64,000 nucleotides of DNA from the IMG/VR virus record IMGVR_UViG_3300042549_005813, one strand, 5' to 3'. Position 1 is the stretch's first letter. The number at the start of each line of letters is the position of its first letter. Made by a program: the position numbers and the translations under genes. Shown piece after piece: positions 32,728 through 43,941 of this stretch. The notes below the pieces were generated by a model. The model worked only from the letters and a program-made list of their open reading frames with translations. It was not told the DNA's origin and searched no databases. Origin of the DNA: a virus.

Positions 32728-33492
32728 ATGGTTACCAAAAAAACAACAGCCAGATACGCAGCGGAACAGTTACAAGATGATGAGAATAAGACAAGGCATC
32801 AACCAGCAGTAAACAATTCATTGAGAATTAAACCAGACCATCTAAAGACGTTTGATCCACTAACAGAAAATCAAAGATTATTCTTTGAGATGTATAAAGG
32901 CGGTGCCTACTTTATGGGACTATTTGGTAGTCCTGGGGTAGGCAAAACTTTTTTGGCACTATATAAATCATTAGAAGAAGTATTAGACAAGTCCAATTCA
33001 TTCAAACAAGTAGTAGTTGTAAGGTCACTTGTGCAATTACGTGACGTTGGTTATTTACCAGGCAATCTTGAAGAAAAACAAGAAATCTATGAATTACCTT
33101 ACAAAGAGATTGCGGCCACATTATTTGGTCGTTCCGATGCATGGGATAGATTAAAGGAACAAAATCATGTACGATTTATTTCTACTACTGCCATTCGTGG
33201 TATTTCTATTGATGATGCTATTATTATAGTTGATGAAAATCAGAATTTGAATTGGTCAGAAGTAAATACAATTATCACCCGTGTTGGACATAGGTCCAAA
33301 ATCATATTTTCAGGTGATTTTAAACAAACTGATTTGATTAAGAGTAACAAAGACCAAACAGCATTCCATAGTTTCTTGGAAGTGGCACGTAAGATGCCGT
33401 CCTTTCAAGAAATATACTTTACACCAGACGATATTGTTCGTTCCAGTTTAGTTAAACAATGGATTGTGGCCTGTGAAGACCTAGGTTACTAA
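32728..33492 (+). CDS. phoH: PhoH-like ATPase
   Basis: PLT.NQ, GSPGVGKT, G.LPG...EK, IRG, IVDENQN, ITRVG, GD..Q.D, DIVRS. Confidence 0.92.
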   Translation: MVTKKTTARYAAEQLQDDENKTRHQPAVNNSLRIKPDHLKTFDPLTENQRLFFEMYKGGAYFMGLFGSPGVGKTFLALYKSLEEVLDKSNSFKQVVVVRSLVQLRDVGYLPGNLEEKQEIYELPYKEIAATLFGRSDAWDRLKEQNHVRFISTTAIRGISIDDAIIIVDENQNLNWSEVNTIITRVGHRSKIIFSGDFKQTDLIKSNKDQTAFHSFLEVARKMPSFQEIYFTPDDIVRSSLVKQWIVACEDLGY

Positions 33493-33531
33493 GATAAATA
33501 CTATTCCAAACTAAGATAAATACTATTCCAA
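33488..33531 (+). repeat. 22 bp perfect tandem duplication containing a late-promoter-like ATAAATA
   Basis: ACTAAGATAAATACTATTCCAA x2. Confidence 0.92.
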
Positions 33532-33548
33532 TAATAAGAGGAAATAAA

Positions 33549-35000
33549 ATGATTTTTGAAATTGAAGCCACACGATTTGAAGATGGTGATAAAAGAGTTT
33601 TTCACTATGACAATATGGCTAATGTGTTGAAAGATTCTGATGGTAATGTGTTTGAATATCCGGCAGACCAAATGCCACAACATTCTTTGAAACCTTACAA
33701 ACCATTTGACAAGAATCGTCCACTAAAAAAATCAAAATTAATCAGCCATTTGAAGATTCAGATGGGGTTGAGTTGTAACTATTCTTGTGATTATTGTTCA
33801 CAGAAGTTTGTTGAACGCCAACCAGAAACCTCTAAAAAAGATATTGATGTTTTTATGGAGAAATTAGATAATCTTCATTTTGATGAAGATGTTGGTTTAA
33901 GAGTTGAATTTTGGGGTGGTGAACCACTTGTTTATTGGAAAACAATGAAGCCATTGGCTGAGGCCATTGCAGAAAAATTTGACAGTTGGAAAACTAAACC
34001 TATTTTTAGTATCATTACAAATGGTTCTATTTTAACTGATGAAATTATTGATTGGTTAATGATGATGGATTTTGCTGTGTCAATTTCACATGATGGACCG
34101 GGTCAATTTGTACGTGGTCCTGATCCTTTTGATGATCCAGAACAAAAAGAACGTATACTTGGATTCTATCGCATGATGACAAAACTAGGTAAAAGTTTCA
34201 GTTTCAATGCAATGTTGAATGCTAAGAACCAAAGTAGAAAAGAAATCTATGATTGGTTTGTAAATCTCACAGGAGATGAAAATGTTATTATTGGTGAAGG
34301 TTCAATGGTTGATGCCTATGATGAAGAAGGTATTTCGTATTCACTAATCACAAAACAAGAACATTTTGATTTTAGACAGAAGGCTTTTGGTGAGTTATAT
34401 GCTTCTGATGGTAAAATTGGTTTCTTGCCTCAGCTGGGTAAAATTGATGATTTAATGGCCTCAATTTTGAGTCATAGAGAATCTAAATATTTAGGTCAAA
34501 AATGTGGTATGGACGATGAACATACAATTTCAGTTGACCTACGTGGTAATGTGATGACCTGTCAGAACGTAAGTTCTTTGGAAATCTCAAAGAATGGTGA
34601 ATCGCACCATGGTGGTACATTGGATAATTATTCAAATGTTGAATTAAAATCTGTCACACATTGGTCAAATCGTAAAGAGTGTCCAGAATGTCCAGTGTTA
34701 CATATATGTAAAGGTGCATGTATGTTCTTGGATGAAAAATATTGGGATATCTCATGTGCAAATGCATATTCAGATAATGTGGCCTTGTTCGCAGCTGCTT
34801 TCACTGTGATGACAAATGGTTATATACCAACTTTGATTAAGAGTGATACTTTACCATTAGATAGACAAGACATTTTTGGTACGATTTTTGAACATAATGA
34901 AGAAAATAAGAAAAAAATCATACCAATCAAGGTAGTTAAAGAGATTATTGGAACTGTTGATGATGTTGCGGTATATGGCAAATCTCGTTTGGAAACCTAA
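33549..35000 (+). CDS. radical SAM / SPASM-domain maturase
   Basis: CNYSCDYC; FWGGEPL; TNG; ISHDG; SPASM C-X13-G-X4-C...CPECPVLHICKGAC...C. Confidence 0.92.
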   Translation: MIFEIEATRFEDGDKRVFHYDNMANVLKDSDGNVFEYPADQMPQHSLKPYKPFDKNRPLKKSKLISHLKIQMGLSCNYSCDYCSQKFVERQPETSKKDIDVFMEKLDNLHFDEDVGLRVEFWGGEPLVYWKTMKPLAEAIAEKFDSWKTKPIFSIITNGSILTDEIIDWLMMMDFAVSISHDGPGQFVRGPDPFDDPEQKERILGFYRMMTKLGKSFSFNAMLNAKNQSRKEIYDWFVNLTGDENVIIGEGSMVDAYDEEGISYSLITKQEHFDFRQKAFGELYASDGKIGFLPQLGKIDDLMASILSHRESKYLGQKCGMDDEHTISVDLRGNVMTCQNVSSLEISKNGESHHGGTLDNYSNVELKSVTHWSNRKECPECPVLHICKGACMFLDEKYWDISCANAYSDNVALFAAAFTVMTNGYIPTLIKSDTLPLDRQDIFGTIFEHNEENKKKIIPIKVVKEIIGTVDDVAVYGKSRLET

Positions 35001-35034
35001 ATAATAATAACAACATTTTAAAGATAGAGAAAAA

Positions 35035-35991
35035 ATGGCAACACCAGATATAAACAGTTCAATTGCAATTTCTCAAATTAATACTGAGGTTGGTAGAGCT
35101 GCAACCACAGCAAGTACGAGCTTAAACTTTTTAAATGGATTTTTGAAACCTGCTGGCACATTGGTGTTGAATCCCGGTGGTACAGTATCAACACCTAGTC
35201 CACAAAGGCAGTCAAATCCACAGAATATGAACGTATATCGTGGTGGTTTAACTCATTACCAAAAAAATAATGGTGGCAATTGTAATAATGTAAACAATAA
35301 AGAACAGAATTGTAGTGTTTCTGGTTCTTCAAGTATTCAATGTAATGCAACAAATAACTGCACTGCAATTAACTGTGCTAATTGTGATACACAAAAATGG
35401 TTACAAAGCGGAAATTGCCAATTGGCAACCACACCAGTATACAACTGCACGAACAACCAAAATTGTTTCACCTATAATTGTAATTGTTCTAAAATTATTT
35501 GTACCAAGTTGTTTGATTTGGGATTGATGAAGAAAAACATTTTTGTGGCTGACCAAGCATTTGGTGAACAATTAAAGAAAACACATCCGGATATATACAA
35601 TGGTTATCGTGCATGGGCTGAGATTGTTGTTGATTGGATGGACGGTAAAGGACCTAAGATGATGCCTTGGATGTCCGATGAAGATTTTAGTGTTGCTGCA
35701 AAAAAGTGGTCTATCACATGGGCACATGATATTGCAACACCTTGGGCTGAAGAAATGGCCTATATGATGGGTGAAAAAGAAACTGGTAGTTTGACTGGTA
35801 AAATGATGTTTGCATTTGGTACACCAATCTGTAAAGTTATTGGTGTGTGGCAACGCTGGTTTGGACCAAGTAAGAAAGAACCCGGTTTTATTAAAGGTGC
35901 GGGCCTTGTTGTAATTTTTGTTATGTTCAAATTGGTTGCTGAACTTGGACGTTTTATTGAAAAATTTATTCCAAAGAAGAAGGTTGCATAA
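35035..35991 (+). CDS. Asn-Cys repeat protein: virion-like N-terminus, Cys-rich core, KIICT C-terminal domain with TM anchor; putative modification substrate
   Basis: 11 Cys in ~70 aa, 10 preceded by Asn; preceded by CTAAATA at 34997. Confidence 0.8.
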   Translation: MATPDINSSIAISQINTEVGRAATTASTSLNFLNGFLKPAGTLVLNPGGTVSTPSPQRQSNPQNMNVYRGGLTHYQKNNGGNCNNVNNKEQNCSVSGSSSIQCNATNNCTAINCANCDTQKWLQSGNCQLATTPVYNCTNNQNCFTYNCNCSKIICTKLFDLGLMKKNIFVADQAFGEQLKKTHPDIYNGYRAWAEIVVDWMDGKGPKMMPWMSDEDFSVAAKKWSITWAHDIATPWAEEMAYMMGEKETGSLTGKMMFAFGTPICKVIGVWQRWFGPSKKEPGFIKGAGLVVIFVMFKLVAELGRFIEKFIPKKKVA

Positions 35992-36284
35992 TGCCAACAT
36001 ATTCCATTAAAAGACCGGTTAAAATTTTAACGGATGATAGTGCAAAATATGTTGATGAACATATGACTTTTTTCTTTAATACATTCAGTTCAAATGCGTT
36101 TAATGCTTTAAACAAAGAAAAAAAGGAACGTGTTTATAAAGCACTAACTTACCATGAAAACATATTAATTAAGTTGTTTGGAAATTCGTTGTTAAAGAGT
36201 GATGTTTTTCTCCCAGAATTATTAAGAAATTCAGTAGATGTAATACAAGTTCATGAATATAAAGAATGGTTGGATAAACAATGA
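35991..36284 (+). CDS. hypothetical protein (paralogue of the next gene)
   Basis: TAATG coupling; L..E.K......E..L..LF...E.KEW..KQ shared. Confidence 0.7.
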   Translation: MPTYSIKRPVKILTDDSAKYVDEHMTFFFNTFSSNAFNALNKEKKERVYKALTYHENILIKLFGNSLLKSDVFLPELLRNSVDVIQVHEYKEWLDKQ

Positions 36285-36661
36285 AAAAATATTCTTACAC
36301 ATATTTTCCGACCATAAAAACTTATGAAGGTGATAATATATTATTGGATACTAAAGTTATTTCAGATTTTTTAAAAAAAACTTTTATGGAAAGAATTTTA
36401 AATTTAACTGAAGAAGAAAAAAATGAATATTTTACTGTAGCTTATGAGTATGAAGATGTATTGACGGAACTTTTTGATTCTCAAGTAGAAAAAGTGGTAC
36501 AAGCTAATTGGACAATGGATCCATTATACAGAAATCCAATAGAAGAATATGAAAATTATGTATCATTACCAAAAGATGAGGATTTAACAGATGAGGAACA
36601 TGAGTTGAAATTACAAGTATTAAAAGAATTTAAAGAATGGTTTGAAAAACAAAACTATTGA
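36281..36661 (+). CDS. hypothetical protein (paralogue of the previous gene)
   Basis: ATGA overlap. Confidence 0.7.
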   Translation: MKKYSYTYFPTIKTYEGDNILLDTKVISDFLKKTFMERILNLTEEEKNEYFTVAYEYEDVLTELFDSQVEKVVQANWTMDPLYRNPIEEYENYVSLPKDEDLTDEEHELKLQVLKEFKEWFEKQNY

Positions 36662-36670
36662 TTTTTTATT

Positions 36671-37378
36671 ATGACACAAAATATTATGACAAGAGAAGAC
36701 AGAGAAAAATACCATTGGTATCAAAATGCACAGAACATGTTTTGGCAAAGTCCAATTTGGGAAGTACAAACACGTTTTGATGAAGAATTTAATGAAACTC
36801 TGTTAGATGAAATTTATGGTATCGGCAAAGATATCGTATTGGGTAAAGACAAAGACCCAAACAACAGTATATGGGACTACAGTAGACCCAACTTAGATAT
36901 ACTTAAACAAGAAATTATAGACATTGTAACCAAGAAAATTGTGCAAAATATTCCACAACTCAGAATGTTAAATATTCGTGGTTGTGAACACTTCATGGGT
37001 TGGGTCAATGTGCGTGAACCAGGAGAACGCTTAGAGGTGCATGGACACACCGAATCTGCTATCGCAGCAACGTATTACATAAAGGCTAAAGAAGGTTGTG
37101 GTGACCTTGTGGCGTTTGATTCTGCACAAGCAATTGATTGGTTAAATAATACTCTAAGTAACACACCAAAATTGCGAGAACGTAGGTTTAAACCAGTTGA
37201 AGGTAGATTGATATTTTTTCCATCATATGTTTTGCATGGCGTTGATGAAAATAAATCTGATGATTTACGCATTTCATTGTCAACCGACCTAAGAAAAGTT
37301 GTAGACAAAAATGCACAGAATACGGTAATTTTAAAATCGTGGGCTGGCCGCATGGCAAAAATTAGAGAATGGAAATAA
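36671..37378 (+). CDS. putative 2OG-Fe(II) oxygenase (TIGR02466-like)
   Basis: WVN..PG....HGH...A.YY, P.EG.LIFFPSY..H.V..N.S...RIS.S. Confidence 0.85.
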   Translation: MTQNIMTREDREKYHWYQNAQNMFWQSPIWEVQTRFDEEFNETLLDEIYGIGKDIVLGKDKDPNNSIWDYSRPNLDILKQEIIDIVTKKIVQNIPQLRMLNIRGCEHFMGWVNVREPGERLEVHGHTESAIAATYYIKAKEGCGDLVAFDSAQAIDWLNNTLSNTPKLRERRFKPVEGRLIFFPSYVLHGVDENKSDDLRISLSTDLRKVVDKNAQNTVILKSWAGRMAKIREWK

Positions 37379-37908
37379 TGTTTACAAAACTGGAAACAAA
37401 TTTTGAAAAACCATTATATGCAGTTACCGACCCACTAAAAAATTTCAAACATGAAGGTAAAGGTATCGACTATAAAAAGATATGGTCACCTGAGGCTGAC
37501 AAAATATATGGTGTGATACCAAAAAGGTACTGGCAGGATTTTCACTTGACAGTAATGACGATTGACTGTATAATCCCACCACATACGGATACGGAAATTA
37601 TTACTTCAATCAACTTTTACCTACAAACAGAAAGTTGTACAACTACATTCTATAGACCAAAAGTTGGTAATCCACGAACATTGCAGGTGGATAATCAAAC
37701 CGATGGGTATATATATTTTGAAGAAGATTTGATTGAAGTTGGTAGTTTTGTTGCTAAAGATTATGAGATTTGGTTACTTGATGTAAGTCAAATACATGGC
37801 GTTAAAGGTGAATTCAATTTACGTAAAGCCATTACCTTAGGAACTTTTGTTCATAAGTATGAGGATGTACTAGAGATGCTAAAGGAAACCAATAATGTCG
37901 TTTGTTAA
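37378..37908 (+). CDS. cupin / Fe(II)-2OG oxygenase-like protein
   Basis: IPPHTD...SINFY...LLDV.QIHGV...R. Confidence 0.75.
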   Translation: MFTKLETNFEKPLYAVTDPLKNFKHEGKGIDYKKIWSPEADKIYGVIPKRYWQDFHLTVMTIDCIIPPHTDTEIITSINFYLQTESCTTTFYRPKVGNPRTLQVDNQTDGYIYFEEDLIEVGSFVAKDYEIWLLDVSQIHGVKGEFNLRKAITLGTFVHKYEDVLEMLKETNNVVC

Positions 37909-38563
37909 ATTGAAACACACATATGAATATATGCCACACACAATCATACCACAAGGTCGAGCAGATTCATTTGCCGGCAAATATGGATTAGGTGTAAGAC
38001 ATAATACAATTTGGACACCAGAACCAGAAAAAGAAGTATTGTATAAGGTTGTACCGGAAAGATATTGGAAAGATTTTCAAGTAACCAGAATGTCAATTAA
38101 TAGTTTATTGTTACCACACGTTGATAATGACTTCATAACAACAATCAATTTTTATTATGACCCACAAAATTATAGAACGGTCTTTTTCAGAGCAAAACTA
38201 GGAGCAAATTCTTGGAAAACAGAAGAAGATAGACACTATGATGTGTCTGTAAATATGAAAGATGAAAAAGTTAATGTTGAAGAATTAAAAACTAGAGTTA
38301 AAGAGTTTGTGTCTGAAAAACAAAATATGCCAACATGTGAAGAAATAACATATGTTGATGCTGTATATACTTTTGATGATGTATATGAAATTGGATCTTT
38401 TATTGCTCAACCTAGTGAAGCATATTTGTTAGATGTGAGAATACCACATAATGTTGAACCATTAGGCGGCGAAGCAAAACTTAGAAAGGCATTTGCACTT
38501 AGAACTAAATTGTATGATTATGGCCAAGTGTATGAAATGTTACAAGAAACTGGAAACTTATAA
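37895..38563 (+). CDS. cupin / Fe(II)-2OG oxygenase-like protein (paralogue)
   Basis: LLPHVD...TINFY...LLDV.IPHNV...R. Confidence 0.75.
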   Translation: MSFVKLKHTYEYMPHTIIPQGRADSFAGKYGLGVRHNTIWTPEPEKEVLYKVVPERYWKDFQVTRMSINSLLLPHVDNDFITTINFYYDPQNYRTVFFRAKLGANSWKTEEDRHYDVSVNMKDEKVNVEELKTRVKEFVSEKQNMPTCEEITYVDAVYTFDDVYEIGSFIAQPSEAYLLDVRIPHNVEPLGGEAKLRKAFALRTKLYDYGQVYEMLQETGNL

Positions 38564-38573
38564 AGGATAATAA

Positions 38574-39368
38574 ATGTTTTTCGAAAAATTAGACTATACA
38601 GTAGATATTGAAAAATTAAAACAAGAAGTGAGAGAAAGTGTTTTCACTTTAGGTGACCAAGTTATACAAGGTGAAGAATATGAAACTCCAAAATACAATG
38701 GTTTTGGTGGTTGGAGTTTAATGTGTAAAGAAGCTACATGGACTGGCGGTTGGGAAGCTGTTCAACTGGAAAAAGGACAAACACTAGAATCCTTTTTACC
38801 AACAAATGAACTGGTACTAAAAGCTTACAAATACTTTAATATTTCTCATGGATTAGAACATGATAAACCAACTGAAGCTTATGTTGGTGAAATTAAAAAA
38901 GTAATGGACGACATTCGTGAAATGGGTTTTTATCCAACCAGAGTTAGGGTTACTTGTTTAAAAGCACACTCAAAAAGTTTGGTGCATAGAGATGCTGAAG
39001 AAACAGAATATATGGCACGTATTCATATTCCATTATTTACGAATAAAAAGTGTGTGCATATTTGTCAAGGTAAAAACTTACATATGCCAGCAGATGGTGG
39101 TGTTTGGATGCTTTGGGTGAATCAATGGCACCAAATTAGAAATGATTCGGATGAGGATAGATATCATATCATCATGGATGCTTATGATACAAAAAAAGTA
39201 ACAAAATTCTTTAATTATGCCGGTGATTTTGAACAATTACAGGATTACGTCAGAGGATTCCGAGAAAAAATTGATGAGGTTGAATTAACCGATGAAGATA
39301 TTGATTTTTTTGAGGCAATTAGAGAACGATATGTTACCAAAAAAGTTAGAGATAATGAATTTATTTAA
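38574..39368 (+). CDS. aspartyl/asparaginyl beta-hydroxylase-like oxygenase
   Basis: R.R...L......HRD...RIHIPL.TN...H.PADG...N..H...N.S..DRYH. Confidence 0.8.
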   Translation: MFFEKLDYTVDIEKLKQEVRESVFTLGDQVIQGEEYETPKYNGFGGWSLMCKEATWTGGWEAVQLEKGQTLESFLPTNELVLKAYKYFNISHGLEHDKPTEAYVGEIKKVMDDIREMGFYPTRVRVTCLKAHSKSLVHRDAEETEYMARIHIPLFTNKKCVHICQGKNLHMPADGGVWMLWVNQWHQIRNDSDEDRYHIIMDAYDTKKVTKFFNYAGDFEQLQDYVRGFREKIDEVELTDEDIDFFEAIRERYVTKKVRDNEFI

Positions 39369-39371
39369 ATT

Positions 39372-40886
39372 ATGACAGATACACATGGAATTATTTTCAC
39401 CGGCATGGAGAGGACTAGAACAATTAGTCGACCAGCTGGTGCAGCAAGATTAAGAACAGTTTTAGACCAACATGGTTACAACGTTGAAGTTGTTGACTAT
39501 TTTGGTAATTTCACAGATGAAGAACTTGAAACAATCTGCGCTAGATTTATTGGACCAAAAACTTTGTTTGTTGGTATTAGTATTACATTCATCTATGCAT
39601 TTGATAAATTAAATAAAATATTCAAACACGTTAAAGAAAAATATCCACACGTAAAAACGCTGATTGGTGGCAATGAAACACCAATTGATGGTGTAGATTT
39701 GACTCAAGTTGATAGGGTGTTTTGGGGTTATGCTGAAGAAGCGGTATTACACTATCTAAAATTTTTAACCAAGAAACGTTTAGATGATTTAAAATGGGTG
39801 CCATACAGAGATACACTTTCTATCAATGCAGAAATGGCATATAAGAATGATGATACGGATTTATCTATTAAGTGGTTAGAGAGTGATTTAATCAAAAATA
39901 ATTTTTTGCCTATTGAAATTAGTAGAGGATGTATTTTTAGGTGTAGATTCTGTGCATTCCCTTTGTTAGGTAAAAAGAAGAATGATTACATTCGTCATGT
40001 GGATAATTTGGCAGATGAATTTCGTAGAAATTATGAATTGTTTGGTGTTAACAACTATTGGTTCAATGATGATACATTTAACGACAACGTGGTCAAATTG
40101 GATTATGTTGCTGAGGCAATCGCCAAGAGTGGTGTTAAGATAACTTACACAGCATTTTTACGTGCAGATTTGATTGAGAGATTTCCTGAAACTATTTCTA
40201 TGTTGGCTGATACTGGTTTGGTTGCTGCAACATTTGGTTTGGAAACTTTTCATCCAGAAGCGAAGAAAGCAATTGGAAAAGGCCTAGATAATGAGAGACA
40301 GTTTGAAGCAATTCGACAATTAAAAAAATATAAACCAATCTACACATATACGGGTATGATATGTGGTTTGCCTGGTGAACCTATATCGAGTGTTTACAAA
40401 AGTCAAAAGATATTGTTGGAACAAAATTTTGAAGTGTTTGATAATTGGGATTGGTGGCCTTTGTTAATTAGAAAAGGTTCTGTAAGTCGCCTAAGTGAAT
40501 TTGAAAAGGAATGTGGAAAGTGGGGTTACACTGAAATGTCACCCGATGAATATACAATTTCAAAAGAGGATGATGATATGAGATATGGTGGAGATAGTGG
40601 TATAATGGCTTGGAAAAGTAAATACTCTAATTACTTTACGGCAAGAATCATTACAGCATTGTTGAATAATGAAACAGAGGAGCATCGTATTGCTGCTGGT
40701 AAATCCATTTATGGAAATGCCAACAAAGGTGTTAGTATTAACCATGATGTATTTGAATTGGTTGGTATGGGTATTGATATAAAAGATATTATTGACGGAA
40801 CATTTGATAAAACTTTTTTGAATAAAAAAATTGAAGAAGCGGATCAAACTATCCTTGAATACAAAAAATTAAAGTTAGGATTATAA
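39372..40886 (+). CDS. B12-binding-type (class B) radical SAM protein
   Basis: N-terminal RPAGA..L...L...GY.V.V.D...GIS..F...IGG; EISRGCIFRCRFC; DDTFND; FGLET; I.GLPGE. Confidence 0.85.
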   Translation: MTDTHGIIFTGMERTRTISRPAGAARLRTVLDQHGYNVEVVDYFGNFTDEELETICARFIGPKTLFVGISITFIYAFDKLNKIFKHVKEKYPHVKTLIGGNETPIDGVDLTQVDRVFWGYAEEAVLHYLKFLTKKRLDDLKWVPYRDTLSINAEMAYKNDDTDLSIKWLESDLIKNNFLPIEISRGCIFRCRFCAFPLLGKKKNDYIRHVDNLADEFRRNYELFGVNNYWFNDDTFNDNVVKLDYVAEAIAKSGVKITYTAFLRADLIERFPETISMLADTGLVAATFGLETFHPEAKKAIGKGLDNERQFEAIRQLKKYKPIYTYTGMICGLPGEPISSVYKSQKILLEQNFEVFDNWDWWPLLIRKGSVSRLSEFEKECGKWGYTEMSPDEYTISKEDDDMRYGGDSGIMAWKSKYSNYFTARIITALLNNETEEHRIAAGKSIYGNANKGVSINHDVFELVGMGIDIKDIIDGTFDKTFLNKKIEEADQTILEYKKLKLGL

Positions 40887-41545: not shown

Positions 41546-41578
41546 CATGATATTGCGGTTGTGTTACAATAATAAATA
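41542..41578 (+). promoter_or_regulatory. tandem sigma70 (TTGACA-17-TACAAT) and late-type (ATAAATA) promoters for the tmRNA
   Basis: -35 at 41542, -10 at 41565, ATAAATA at 41572. Confidence 0.7.
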
Positions 41579-41581
41579 ATG

Positions 41582-41878
41582 TTATGGTTGTATGAAGCAA
41601 CTAGAAATGTGTTCTGGACGGGGGTGCGAATCCCCCCAGGTCCACCATAAGCATATTAGTGGTCTTGAAACCCACAATTCATAGTTAAGTCTATGTGCTA
41701 GTATGCTTCTGATGGGCCTGCATAGTTTCGACAGGGCAAATAGTACAGAAGTGGACAGCTCATCAGAGAAGATGTTAAAACTAAATCAAAGTAAACGCAA
41801 ACGACTCACAGTTCGCATTGGCAGCCTAAACGCTGACTAGGGTTTCGGTTGGTTTCCTCGTAACAGAATAACCAACCA
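41582..41878 (+). ncRNA. ssrA: circularly permuted two-piece tmRNA, tag (A)ANDSQFALAA
   Basis: T arm GGGGG-TGCGAAT-CCCCC plus CAGGTCC-A-CCA (ends 41647) precedes the 5' acceptor GGGCCTG (41714) with G3:U70; tag frame 41797-41829; outer ends approximate. Confidence 0.9.
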
Positions 41879-41890
41879 CTTAATGGAGGT

Positions 41891-42472
41891 ATGATGCAGT
41901 CAATTTGGTGTAGGAATGAAATTAAAATCGCTGATGAATTGATGGAATTGGCACCAAAATTACGTGATGAATTTTTAGAATATCATAAAGACTTTCACAC
42001 CACATTTAAAGGCGGTGTATCATATGCTGCATCAAACCCACATGCTGTTTTGGATGAAAAAGAAAAGAATGATTGGAAGGTTGAAGGACTACGTTATGCA
42101 TTACCTGAACAAAAGGTTGAACATAATTTCTTTTTACAACCAAGAATACGCAACATATTTCCAACCGCATCAACGCTAACACAACAGTATATTGCTCACA
42201 TTGGTTGTAGTGGTTACAGTGTACTAGAATCAGGTGGTGTTATTAAAAGTCATGTAGACATTGAGAATCGTTCACGCAACACAGTAAGAATTCATATACC
42301 ATTAATCATACCAGAAGGTGATGTTGCACTGGAAGTTAATGGTATAAAGCAGGATTGGTCCGACTTATTTGCATTTGATAATGCTGAATTGCATAGTGCA
42401 TATAATAAGACTGATAAAAGGAGACTAATTTATATCATAGATATATCTAAGTCGATTTTGTTTAACAACTAG
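41891..42472 (+). CDS. aspartyl/asparaginyl beta-hydroxylase-like oxygenase
   Basis: YSVL..G..I..HVD...RIHIPL.IP, FAFD....HSAYN....R. Confidence 0.85.
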   Translation: MMQSIWCRNEIKIADELMELAPKLRDEFLEYHKDFHTTFKGGVSYAASNPHAVLDEKEKNDWKVEGLRYALPEQKVEHNFFLQPRIRNIFPTASTLTQQYIAHIGCSGYSVLESGGVIKSHVDIENRSRNTVRIHIPLIIPEGDVALEVNGIKQDWSDLFAFDNAELHSAYNKTDKRRLIYIIDISKSILFNN

Positions 42473-42481
42473 GAGTTAATT

Positions 42482-43024
42482 TTGAAGAAAATCAGTTTAG
42501 TTTTGGCCTCTTTGGTCATGAGTGCCGCAGCGATGGCACAAGGTTATGGTTCATTGGAGTATTCTGATGAAACAAATCGTGCAACAAATGTCTCTAATAT
42601 TAAAGAAGCAATTGTTATTGGTAATAAAGTTGGTTCTACCGACTATAGCCTTAAAATGGAAAACAGCCAAACTGCACTTGGTAGTGGTTCAATTTCACAA
42701 GGACTAGAAGTTCGTGTGAAACAATCTATCGGTGCTTTCTACGTTGGTGGACGTTTGGGTGAAAGAGTAACCAGTTCAACACATTTTAGTCATTATGCAG
42801 TTGATGCTGGTGTTAAGTTCCCATTGGTTGCTGGTTTGTCTGGTGATGTTGGTGCTCGTTATCGTAATGCATTTGATACTACAAACGCATATCAAACGAC
42901 CCGTGTTCACACAGCAGTCGGTTACGATTTGACCAAACAAGACAAAGTTGCAGTTCGTTGGAGCCGTTCATATGGTGACGAAGAAAAAGATGCATGGCGT
43001 CTACAGTACACACGTAGTTTTTAA
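42482..43024 (+). CDS. small outer-membrane beta-barrel protein
   Basis: signal peptide ending AAAMA; alternating beta strands; C-terminal LQYTRSF BAM signal. Confidence 0.75.
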   Translation: MKKISLVLASLVMSAAAMAQGYGSLEYSDETNRATNVSNIKEAIVIGNKVGSTDYSLKMENSQTALGSGSISQGLEVRVKQSIGAFYVGGRLGERVTSSTHFSHYAVDAGVKFPLVAGLSGDVGARYRNAFDTTNAYQTTRVHTAVGYDLTKQDKVAVRWSRSYGDEEKDAWRLQYTRSF

Positions 43025-43428: not shown

Positions 43429-43941
43429 ATGAAGTTTTTATCAACTTTATTATTTTCTTTATCATTATTGATTTTACCTTTAACATCCCAAGAACAAACA
43501 ATTCCAATAGAAAGAGTGGTTTCACAGGATTTAAATAAACAATTACTTTGCATGGCCAAAAACATCTACTATGAAGCCGCAAACGAATCTTTTGAAGGTA
43601 AATTAGCAGTAGCACAAGTTACAATGAATCGTGTGAATAGTCCATTTTATCCCAAAACAGTTTGTGAAGTGGTATATCAAAAAACGGGCCGCACATACCA
43701 ATTCAGTTGGGTTGGTGAGAATGTTGGACCGGTTAGGAGCAAATATGCATGGGAAGAATGCCTAATTGTCGCAAGGAAAGCCTTGACACAAACAAAATTA
43801 CATGATAAAATATATGAAACCAATTCAATGTTCTATCATGCCACCTACGTTAATCCAGAATGGAAATTAAGGTACGTTGCAAAAATTGGAAATCATCTGT
43901 TCTATACGAAAGCTCAAAGTGCCAACAAAAACCGAAATTAA
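43429..43941 (+). CDS. SleB-like cell wall hydrolase (Hydrolase_2)
   Basis: C.A.NIYYEA..E...GK.AVAQV..NRV...P.TVCEVVYQ...QFSW; FYHA.YV.P.W...IG.H.FY. Confidence 0.9.
   Translation: MKFLSTLLFSLSLLILPLTSQEQTIPIERVVSQDLNKQLLCMAKNIYYEAANESFEGKLAVAQVTMNRVNSPFYPKTVCEVVYQKTGRTYQFSWVGENVGPVRSKYAWEECLIVARKALTQTKLHDKIYETNSMFYHATYVNPEWKLRYVAKIGNHLFYTKAQSANKNRN

Follow-up and report, generated by a model that had tools for sequence, protein, structure and literature searches.

A phage cassette that pairs a radical SAM/SPASM enzyme with an Asn-Cys-repeat protein and oxygenases, and its possible action on fibre-tip or adhesin-like proteins

What would a bacteriophage make with two radical S-adenosylmethionine (SAM) enzymes, a series of oxygenases and a protein built around repeated Asn-Cys pairs? 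The question is raised by nine plus-strand open reading frames (ORFs) at positions 33549-40886 of a 64,000-nucleotide stretch of viral DNA (IMG/VR virus record IMGVR_UViG_3300042549_005813; the whole stretch is called the window below), led by a radical SAM/SPASM enzyme, rSAM1, and a 318-aa Asn-Cys (NC) protein, NCrich. A preliminary description of the window had read these genes as a tightly coupled island of the type that matures peptides that are synthesized ribosomally and modified post-translationally (RiPPs), and all nine were recovered, tightly packed with inter-ORF spacings of -14 to +34 nt. The analysis presented here leads us to assign a probability of roughly 0.6 to the reading that the cassette installs thioether cross-links and hydroxyls on a fibre-tip or adhesin-like protein.

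Linkage of the radical SAM enzyme to Asn-Cys runs and tail fibres

A search for co-occurrence of the radical SAM gene with NC-repeat proteins, proposed in the preliminary description, revealed a pronounced association. Homologues of rSAM1 (61-98% identity) are carried by 62 viral contigs, and a scan of one genome per species added 80 further loci, mostly from freshwater Burkholderiales such as Limnohabitans and Polynucleobacter. Linkage was scored as a same-strand ORF with at least four [N/D]C dipeptides in 30 aa at most 5 kb from the radical SAM gene. Such an NC-run ORF is present at 123 of 144 loci (62/62 viral, 60/80 bacterial, these being prophage, and Achromobacter phage JWF) and in none of the controls (3665 six-frame ORFs at a greater distance, and 272 from elsewhere in the window); the majority of loci missing the NC-run ORF have no upstream flank. 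Within the 62 viral contigs the NC protein lies downstream of the radical SAM gene in 60 and upstream in two. The tetrapeptide NCNC is found in 108 of 109 distinct neighbours of the radical SAM family, and about 69% of the Cys residues in these neighbours are preceded by Asn. Branches of the enzyme tree follow the architecture of the substrate: 67 members with NC-domain partners form one clade (SH-aLRT support 100), separate from the clades with fibre-terminal NC runs, a pattern which, at the level of sequence, indicates that enzyme and presumed substrate vary together.

The pattern of gene combinations extends beyond this pair. In T4-like contigs the core of the cassette comprises the radical SAM enzyme, the NC protein, a small protein and the oxygenases p179 and AspH264, in an order kept across clades down to 61% radical SAM identity; p179 and AspH264 follow in nearly all T4-like contigs that are long enough, and the oxygenase oxy235 in many. 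Divergence is more rapid in NCrich (58-92% identity) and the small proteins (27-66%) than in the enzymes (80-98% for the radical SAM enzyme). Since the trio of radical SAM/SPASM enzyme, NC run and 2-oxoglutarate (2OG) oxygenase recurs across unrelated phage types, a single pathway that acts on the NC run is favoured.

These same data bear on the possibility that unrelated auxiliary genes, serving no common pathway, have merely gathered at a hypervariable insertion site. The genes phoH and exonuclease are direct neighbours in the Synechococcus phages S-SZBM1 and S-RSM4, two cyanomyoviruses, and lie 7.4 kb apart here, so that comparison of gene order confirms the earlier proposal of an insertion between them. 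While this makes the site an insertion point, and accessory content does differ by lineage, a chance gathering is hard to reconcile with a five-member core order kept to 61% radical SAM identity, with the recurrence of the radical SAM/NC/oxygenase trio in prophages and with the linkage statistics, and we give it very little credence.

Two variants illustrate the accessory content. Contig L048 has a fatty-acid desaturase (L048:12616-13317; PF00487, 59.9 bits) between the small protein and the oxygenases. The T4-like contig L060 (L060:2623-7698) holds a variant cassette in which the NC protein lies upstream of the radical SAM gene, has no C-terminal domain (CTD) of the NCrich type and terminates with an extended (C-A/V-D-C-A-C-A)n run. 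Behind it come two genes resembling PP-loop ATPases; the product of one, 290 aa in length, matches Asn_synthase/QueC.

A connection to tail fibres emerged from more distant relatives of rSAM1. Ralstonia phage RSP15 and JWF both encode homologues of 44% identity within their tail-fibre modules, and in JWF the tail fibre gp28 carries the NC run NCNCDCNCNCSC with a Hint domain immediately after it. In the prophage loci the usual order is gp27-like gene, gp28-like fibre, RSP15_047-like protein of 270 aa, between one and three 2OG oxygenases (PF13759/PF13640) and radical SAM gene, such that PF13759 enzymes are again found between fibre and radical SAM gene, and the gp28-like fibre closes with an NC run (as in ...NCNCNCNCDCYC-stop). 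Locus L070 has a Gp34_trimer plus Peptidase_S74 fibre, then a stand-alone NC protein of 151 aa with the N-terminus and NC core seen in NCrich, then a radical SAM enzyme 55% identical to rSAM1. As the enzyme is encoded beside NC-tipped tail fibres in these other phages and prophages, chemical modification of a fibre or adhesin part is probable and, judged by the fibre context, its target would be an adhesin or the tip of a fibre. The virion adhesin entertained in the preliminary description thus gains support from the NC run forming the C-terminal tail-fibre tip in prophages and JWF.

Further observations were made at these loci. RSP15 ORF046 (L001:7162-7992), directly upstream of the radical SAM gene, shows an HxD...H pattern and may be a further cupin oxygenase that partners this enzyme; its weak match to p222 (E 0.09) was the only similarity returned when the island proteins were compared by BLASTP with the radical SAM neighbours of JWF and RSP15, none of which gave a significant match. 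Single bacterial assemblies contain up to four fibre/radical SAM loci (L075/L077/L080/L133 in one metagenome-assembled genome, L093/L139/L142/L146 in another), suggesting several prophages or tailocin-like elements per genome.

The presumed substrate and its enzymes

Table 1. Features of the cassette and its immediate surroundings, with positions in the window
Feature	Position	Strand	Remarks
Two tandem 21-nt copies, period 22, each with GATAAATAC	33489..33531	+	Directly upstream of rSAM1; late-promoter-like
rSAM1, radical SAM/SPASM, 483 aa	33549..35000	+	Putative thioether-forming maturase; PF04055, phrog_1802
NCrich, 318-aa Asn-Cys protein	35035..35991	+	No Pfam, PHROG or NCBIfam match
NCrich residues 1-79	35035..35271	+	Conserved N-terminal segment and variable linker, from alignment
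NCrich residues 80-152	35272..35490	+	Asn-Cys core, presumed substrate region
NCrich residues 153-318	35491..35991	+	CTD; opens with invariant KIICTKL
sm97, small helical protein	35991..36284	+	Start overlaps NCrich stop
sm126, distant sm97 paralogue	36281..36661	+	
oxy235, 2OG-Fe(II) oxygenase	36671..37378	+	PF13759 63.7 bits, phrog_81
p179, cupin/double-stranded beta-helix oxygenase	37369..37908	+	HxD...H...R, AlphaFold2 model; core cassette member
p222, p179 paralogue with insertion	37895..38563	+	Lineage-specific
AspH264, Asp/Asn beta-hydroxylase family	38574..39368	+	PF05118; core cassette member
B12rSAM, B12-binding radical SAM	39372..40886	+	PF02310 and PF04055; lineage-specific accessory
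oxy193, second AspH-family oxygenase	41891..42472	+	PF05118 54.3 bits; possible fifth cassette oxygenase

The Asn-Cys repeats noted earlier in NCrich amount to 10 NC dipeptides, and 12 of its 13 Cys residues fall within residues 80-156. Eleven Cys columns of the core are conserved in 23 homologues, mostly with Asn before Cys, and the N-terminal motif is common to the stand-alone NC proteins of L060 and L070. The three parts of the protein differ markedly in their AlphaFold2 models: the predicted local distance difference test (pLDDT) score is below 50 for residues 1-79, about 27 for the core, which is modelled as unfolded, and 70-85 for the CTD, a predicted helical bundle followed by a terminal hydrophobic helix and a basic tail. 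A fold search with the model was informative for neither part, the CTD drawing only generic helical-bundle matches (best Z 6.1), and a complex prediction of NCrich with sm97, run without controls, scored 0.00. A search for longer proteins with the N-terminal and NC parts of NCrich found none, which is weak evidence. The EGF-type AspH consensus was considered for NCrich and rejected, as inspection by eye gave no match.

The CTD provides a further tie to fibres, as other phage proteins, encoded beside fibre genes, have it joined to Gly-rich N-domains; one of them is gp028 of Synechococcus phage SynMITS9220M01, a Gly-rich fibre-cluster protein that ends in this domain. It shares with the Hint domain of JWF gp28 and of loci L077 and L141 the position directly after the NC run, and is therefore possibly an anchoring or removable module. 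In a 231-kb jumbo-phage contig (L147:1-10518), a Gly-rich CTD protein lies after a 4001-aa FG-GAP-like protein and before a Gly_rich_2 protein; no radical SAM gene was found within 8 kb of it, and the CTD is therefore a general C-terminal module of fibre-cluster proteins.

The architecture of NCrich invites a different account of the product, in which the protein is modified yet ends up membrane-anchored or released instead of in the virion, for instance to exclude superinfection, to act as a bacteriocin-like factor or to bind metal. The terminal hydrophobic helix and basic tail, the distance of the cassette from the structural genes and a set of tailoring enzymes that varies by lineage as in RiPP clusters (the L048 desaturase and the L060 PP-loop ATPases) would all fit such a product. 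However, prophages and JWF connect the radical SAM family with the tips of tail fibres, the CTD recurs among fibre-cluster proteins and the island has no signal peptide, transporter or protease gene, and on balance we consider a non-virion product unlikely, if still worth keeping in view.

Assignment of rSAM1 rests on several lines of comparison. The protein matches PF04055 at 39.5 bits (cut-off 29.5) and contains the CX3CX2C motif of the SAM-binding cluster as C76, C80 and C83. The seven-Cys C-terminal SPASM motif, indicative of two auxiliary clusters (CX9-15GX4C ... CX2CX5CX3C ... C), is complete as C319-X13-G-X4-C338 ... C378-X2-C381-X5-C387-X3-C391 ... C403, in agreement with the preliminary description, and all ten motif Cys residues are invariant across 11 homologues at identities down to 45%. 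The Pfam SPASM model gave no match at E<=0.1; NCBIfam alignments to CcpM, DynA, YhhB and anSME cover the region. The best NCBIfam matches are to the PapB, geopeptide, CcpM and QhpD maturases, all far below cut-off (bits/cut-off: PapB 79/340, CcpM 70/500, SCIFF maturase 51/425, QhpD 64/453), and rSAM1 exceeds the cut-off of no curated ranthipeptide or sactipeptide maturase family. The best PDB profile matches are 8vpo, CteB 5wgg and anSME 4k36. Judged by these profiles, rSAM1 is closest in kinship to thioether-forming SPASM maturases of peptides or proteins.

That the nearest families are peptide and protein maturases also helps to weigh a third explanation, in which the NC repeats serve as ligands for metal or an Fe-S cluster, with no enzymatic cross-link, and the radical SAM enzyme and the oxygenases act on another substrate, such as a nucleotide, sugar, lipid or host protein. 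Cys-rich runs can chelate metals, the oxy193/AspH family includes lipid hydroxylases such as LpxO, relatives of B12rSAM adjoin QueC-like and sugar genes, and the RSP15 enzyme has no NC protein near it. Set against the near-universal same-strand adjacency of radical SAM and NC genes over very different phage types, and against the maturase kinship of rSAM1, this explanation seems improbable to us.

Four oxygenases lie within the block, as had been described, but a fifth, oxy193, lies just beyond the island as first delimited; it is located between B12rSAM and the exonuclease in five related contigs (L011, L014, L016, L018 and L024). The resemblance of one oxygenase to Asp/Asn beta-hydroxylases holds for AspH264, which scores 36.4 bits against PF05118, with 54.3 bits for oxy193 and a cut-off of 22.6 for both; its PDB match is 7v4f, 'Beta-hydroxylase' (E 9e-6). 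The paralogues p179 and p222 have no Pfam match and share invariant H72, D74, H143 and R152. The AlphaFold2 model of p179 (pLDDT 89.6) is a beta-sandwich with the double-stranded beta-helix fold, and its top Foldseek matches, although weak (E about 4e-4, TM-score 0.4-0.48), are the 2OG protein hydroxylases MINA53, NO66 and YcfD. This fold, the HxD/E...H iron triad and a basic residue for 2OG are the hallmarks by which p179 and p222 are classed as 2OG-Fe(II) oxygenases.

The two small proteins, sm97 and sm126, had been called paralogues; they are indeed related, but only transitively, through one small-protein family for which no PDB, Pfam or Atlas relatives were found. A member of this family directly follows NCrich in most T4-like clades examined, though not in L067, where an oxygenase gene takes its place directly after the NC protein.

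The last gene of the block fits the class-B-type radical SAM enzyme proposed earlier, with an N-terminal B12-binding domain (PF02310, 34.6 bits, cut-off 32.1) before a radical SAM core (PF04055, 69.7 bits) that contains a CX3CX2C motif. This architecture is also found in non-methylases such as BchE and HpnJ. Among NCBIfam models the PhpK subfamily fits B12rSAM best, with a score of 101 bits where the cut-off is 600. Both B12rSAM and p222 are confined to the closest clade and are lineage-specific additions to the conserved core. Distant B12rSAM relatives occur among several other radical SAM genes in L149:6945-10539 and L150:7365-17352, which additionally hold QueC-like genes, acetyl- and methyltransferases and sugar epimerases and are possibly DNA or sugar modification clusters.

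Proposed chemistry, timing and genomic setting

QhpD/QhpC, CrpC/CrpA and the ranthipeptide enzymes serve as models here, and on that analogy Cys-to-Asn/Asp side-chain thioethers together with hydroxylation would be the likeliest outcome. The pathway that we infer would begin with rSAM1, with its three predicted [4Fe-4S] clusters, acting on the Asn-Cys core of NCrich and most likely linking a Cys sulfur to a side-chain carbon of the adjacent Asn or Asp to give ranthionine-type thioethers. The oxygenases p179, AspH264, oxy235, p222 and perhaps oxy193 would hydroxylate NCrich, with Asn/Asp beta-hydroxylation as the obvious candidate. B12rSAM may contribute a lineage-specific step, possibly C-methylation, which is the least certain part of the proposed pathway: because its relatives at 34-50% identity lie in unrelated phage neighbourhoods, its role is read from operon position only. 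The product would be a compact cross-linked knot that forms or caps a fibre tip or adhesin, and the helical CTD would either anchor the precursor or be removed, a self-cleaving Hint domain being found at the same place in JWF.

Several points weigh against this reading. Within the cassette, an oxygen-sensitive radical SAM enzyme and oxygen-dependent oxygenases must function in one cell, and the B12rSAM relatives lie in unrelated contexts. The N-terminal extension of rSAM1 is only about 65 aa long, no Pfam or NCBIfam match, such as one to a leader-binding PqqD-like RiPP recognition element, covers residues 1-65, and the alignment to CcpM begins at model position 72. The terminal hydrophobic helix of NCrich is equally compatible with a membrane protein. 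As for the fibre connection, the cassette lies outside the baseplate module and has no adjoining fibre gene in this phage, and the RSP15 enzyme is located within a tail module yet has no NC-run protein within 8 kb.

If modification of fibre tips or adhesins is nonetheless the function of the cassette, a broader picture can be drawn, although we hold it more tentatively, at somewhat short of even odds. Phages of several morphotypes would staple and hydroxylate Asn-Cys fibre or adhesin tips with radical SAM/SPASM enzymes and oxygenases, while lineage-specific enzymes (B12rSAM, the desaturase and the PP-loop ATPases) would diversify the chemistry of the receptor-binding tip, amounting to RiPP-type chemistry on the virus particle.

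Expression of the cassette late in infection had been suggested from late promoters placed before its first two genes. A T4-type late promoter has TATAAATA about 10 nt before the transcript start, and no exact copy of this consensus was found near the island. Two copies of GATAAATAC do precede rSAM1, but only CCTAAATA lies upstream of NCrich. The motif ATAAATA occurs eight times on the plus strand of the window and not at all on the minus strand; this strand bias and the tandem copies are compatible with a late-type promoter, without constituting proof, and late timing would be read solely from the promoter-like motif.

The window itself is T4-like, with rIIA and baseplate genes. No DNA match of at least 85% identity was found among 50,697 phage records, and since its phoH is at most about 43% identical to that of any isolate, the phage has no cultured relative. 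Downstream of the cassette, a permuted (two-piece) transfer-messenger RNA gene was called by ARAGORN at 41555-41920 (+), between the exonuclease and oxy193, with the tag peptide ANDSQFALAA and a late-type ATAAATA motif at 41572. Further on, the 180-aa ORF at 42482-43024 (+) begins with a clear signal peptide, resembles an outer-membrane beta-barrel in composition, has no Pfam match and is kept in the closest related contigs. At 43429-43941 (+), a SleB-type cell wall hydrolase domain (PF07486, 83.5 bits) and a signal peptide are found in a protein of 170 aa.

Relation to known systems and meaning

QhpD/QhpC and CrpC/CrpA are documented cases of thioethers placed on whole proteins by radical SAM/SPASM enzymes (PMC13692751). 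The cassette resembles these systems in having a radical SAM/SPASM gene beside a Cys-rich protein with repeated Cys motifs, and in a substrate, presumed here, that is a protein and not a short peptide. In contrast to them, it is phage-encoded and linked to tail fibres, has an Asn-Cys repeat in place of CxxQ/D, includes several oxygenases, contains no detected RiPP recognition element and scores far below the family cut-offs.

The likeness to the ranthipeptide pairs PapB/PapA, CteB/CteA and NxxcB/NxxcA lies in the best matches of rSAM1, to PapB (79 bits) and CteB (5wgg). The known chemistry of ranthipeptide maturases consists of Cys-to-Asp/Asn side-chain thioethers, and NxxcB makes a Cys-Asn link. 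Unlike in these systems, the substrate would be a protein of 150-340 aa or a whole tail fibre instead of a leader-core peptide, the cassette has no export or protease gene and membership cut-offs are not reached.

Two further comparisons concern single parts of the cassette. As with AspH (PF05118), which acts on Cys-rich EGF domains, AspH264 and oxy193 pass the Pfam threshold and the presumed substrate is rich in Asn and Cys; they differ in being much smaller and having no TPR domain, NCrich has no EGF consensus and their activity is a prediction. The CTD can be compared with the C-terminal domains of phage fibres that act as intramolecular chaperones or cleave themselves (Peptidase_S74; Hint): it directly follows the NC run, in the place that Hint occupies in JWF gp28, L077 and L141, but is all-helical with its terminal hydrophobic helix and shows no sequence or fold similarity to them.

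Literature searches covering radical SAM enzymes and tail fibres, ranthipeptides in bacteriophages and tail-fibre thioethers turned up no account of this system, and to our knowledge there is no enzymatic thioether cross-linking of a virion protein, a search of the literature having returned none. A cyanophage paper lists a radical SAM maturase merely as an 'antibiotic synthesis' gene.

The cultured phage JWF, whose host is Achromobacter, provides a direct test system. If the proposed modification is true, many freshwater phages and prophages would have natural-product-like modifications on their receptor-binding tips, invisible in sequence alone, with a bearing on host-range prediction, fibre stability and the prediction of structures, for which the NC region is a point of failure. 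A function would be gained for some of the numerous orphan 2OG oxygenases of T4-like phage genomes, and radical SAM/SPASM protein cross-linking, to date demonstrated on QhpC and CrpA, would extend to viruses.

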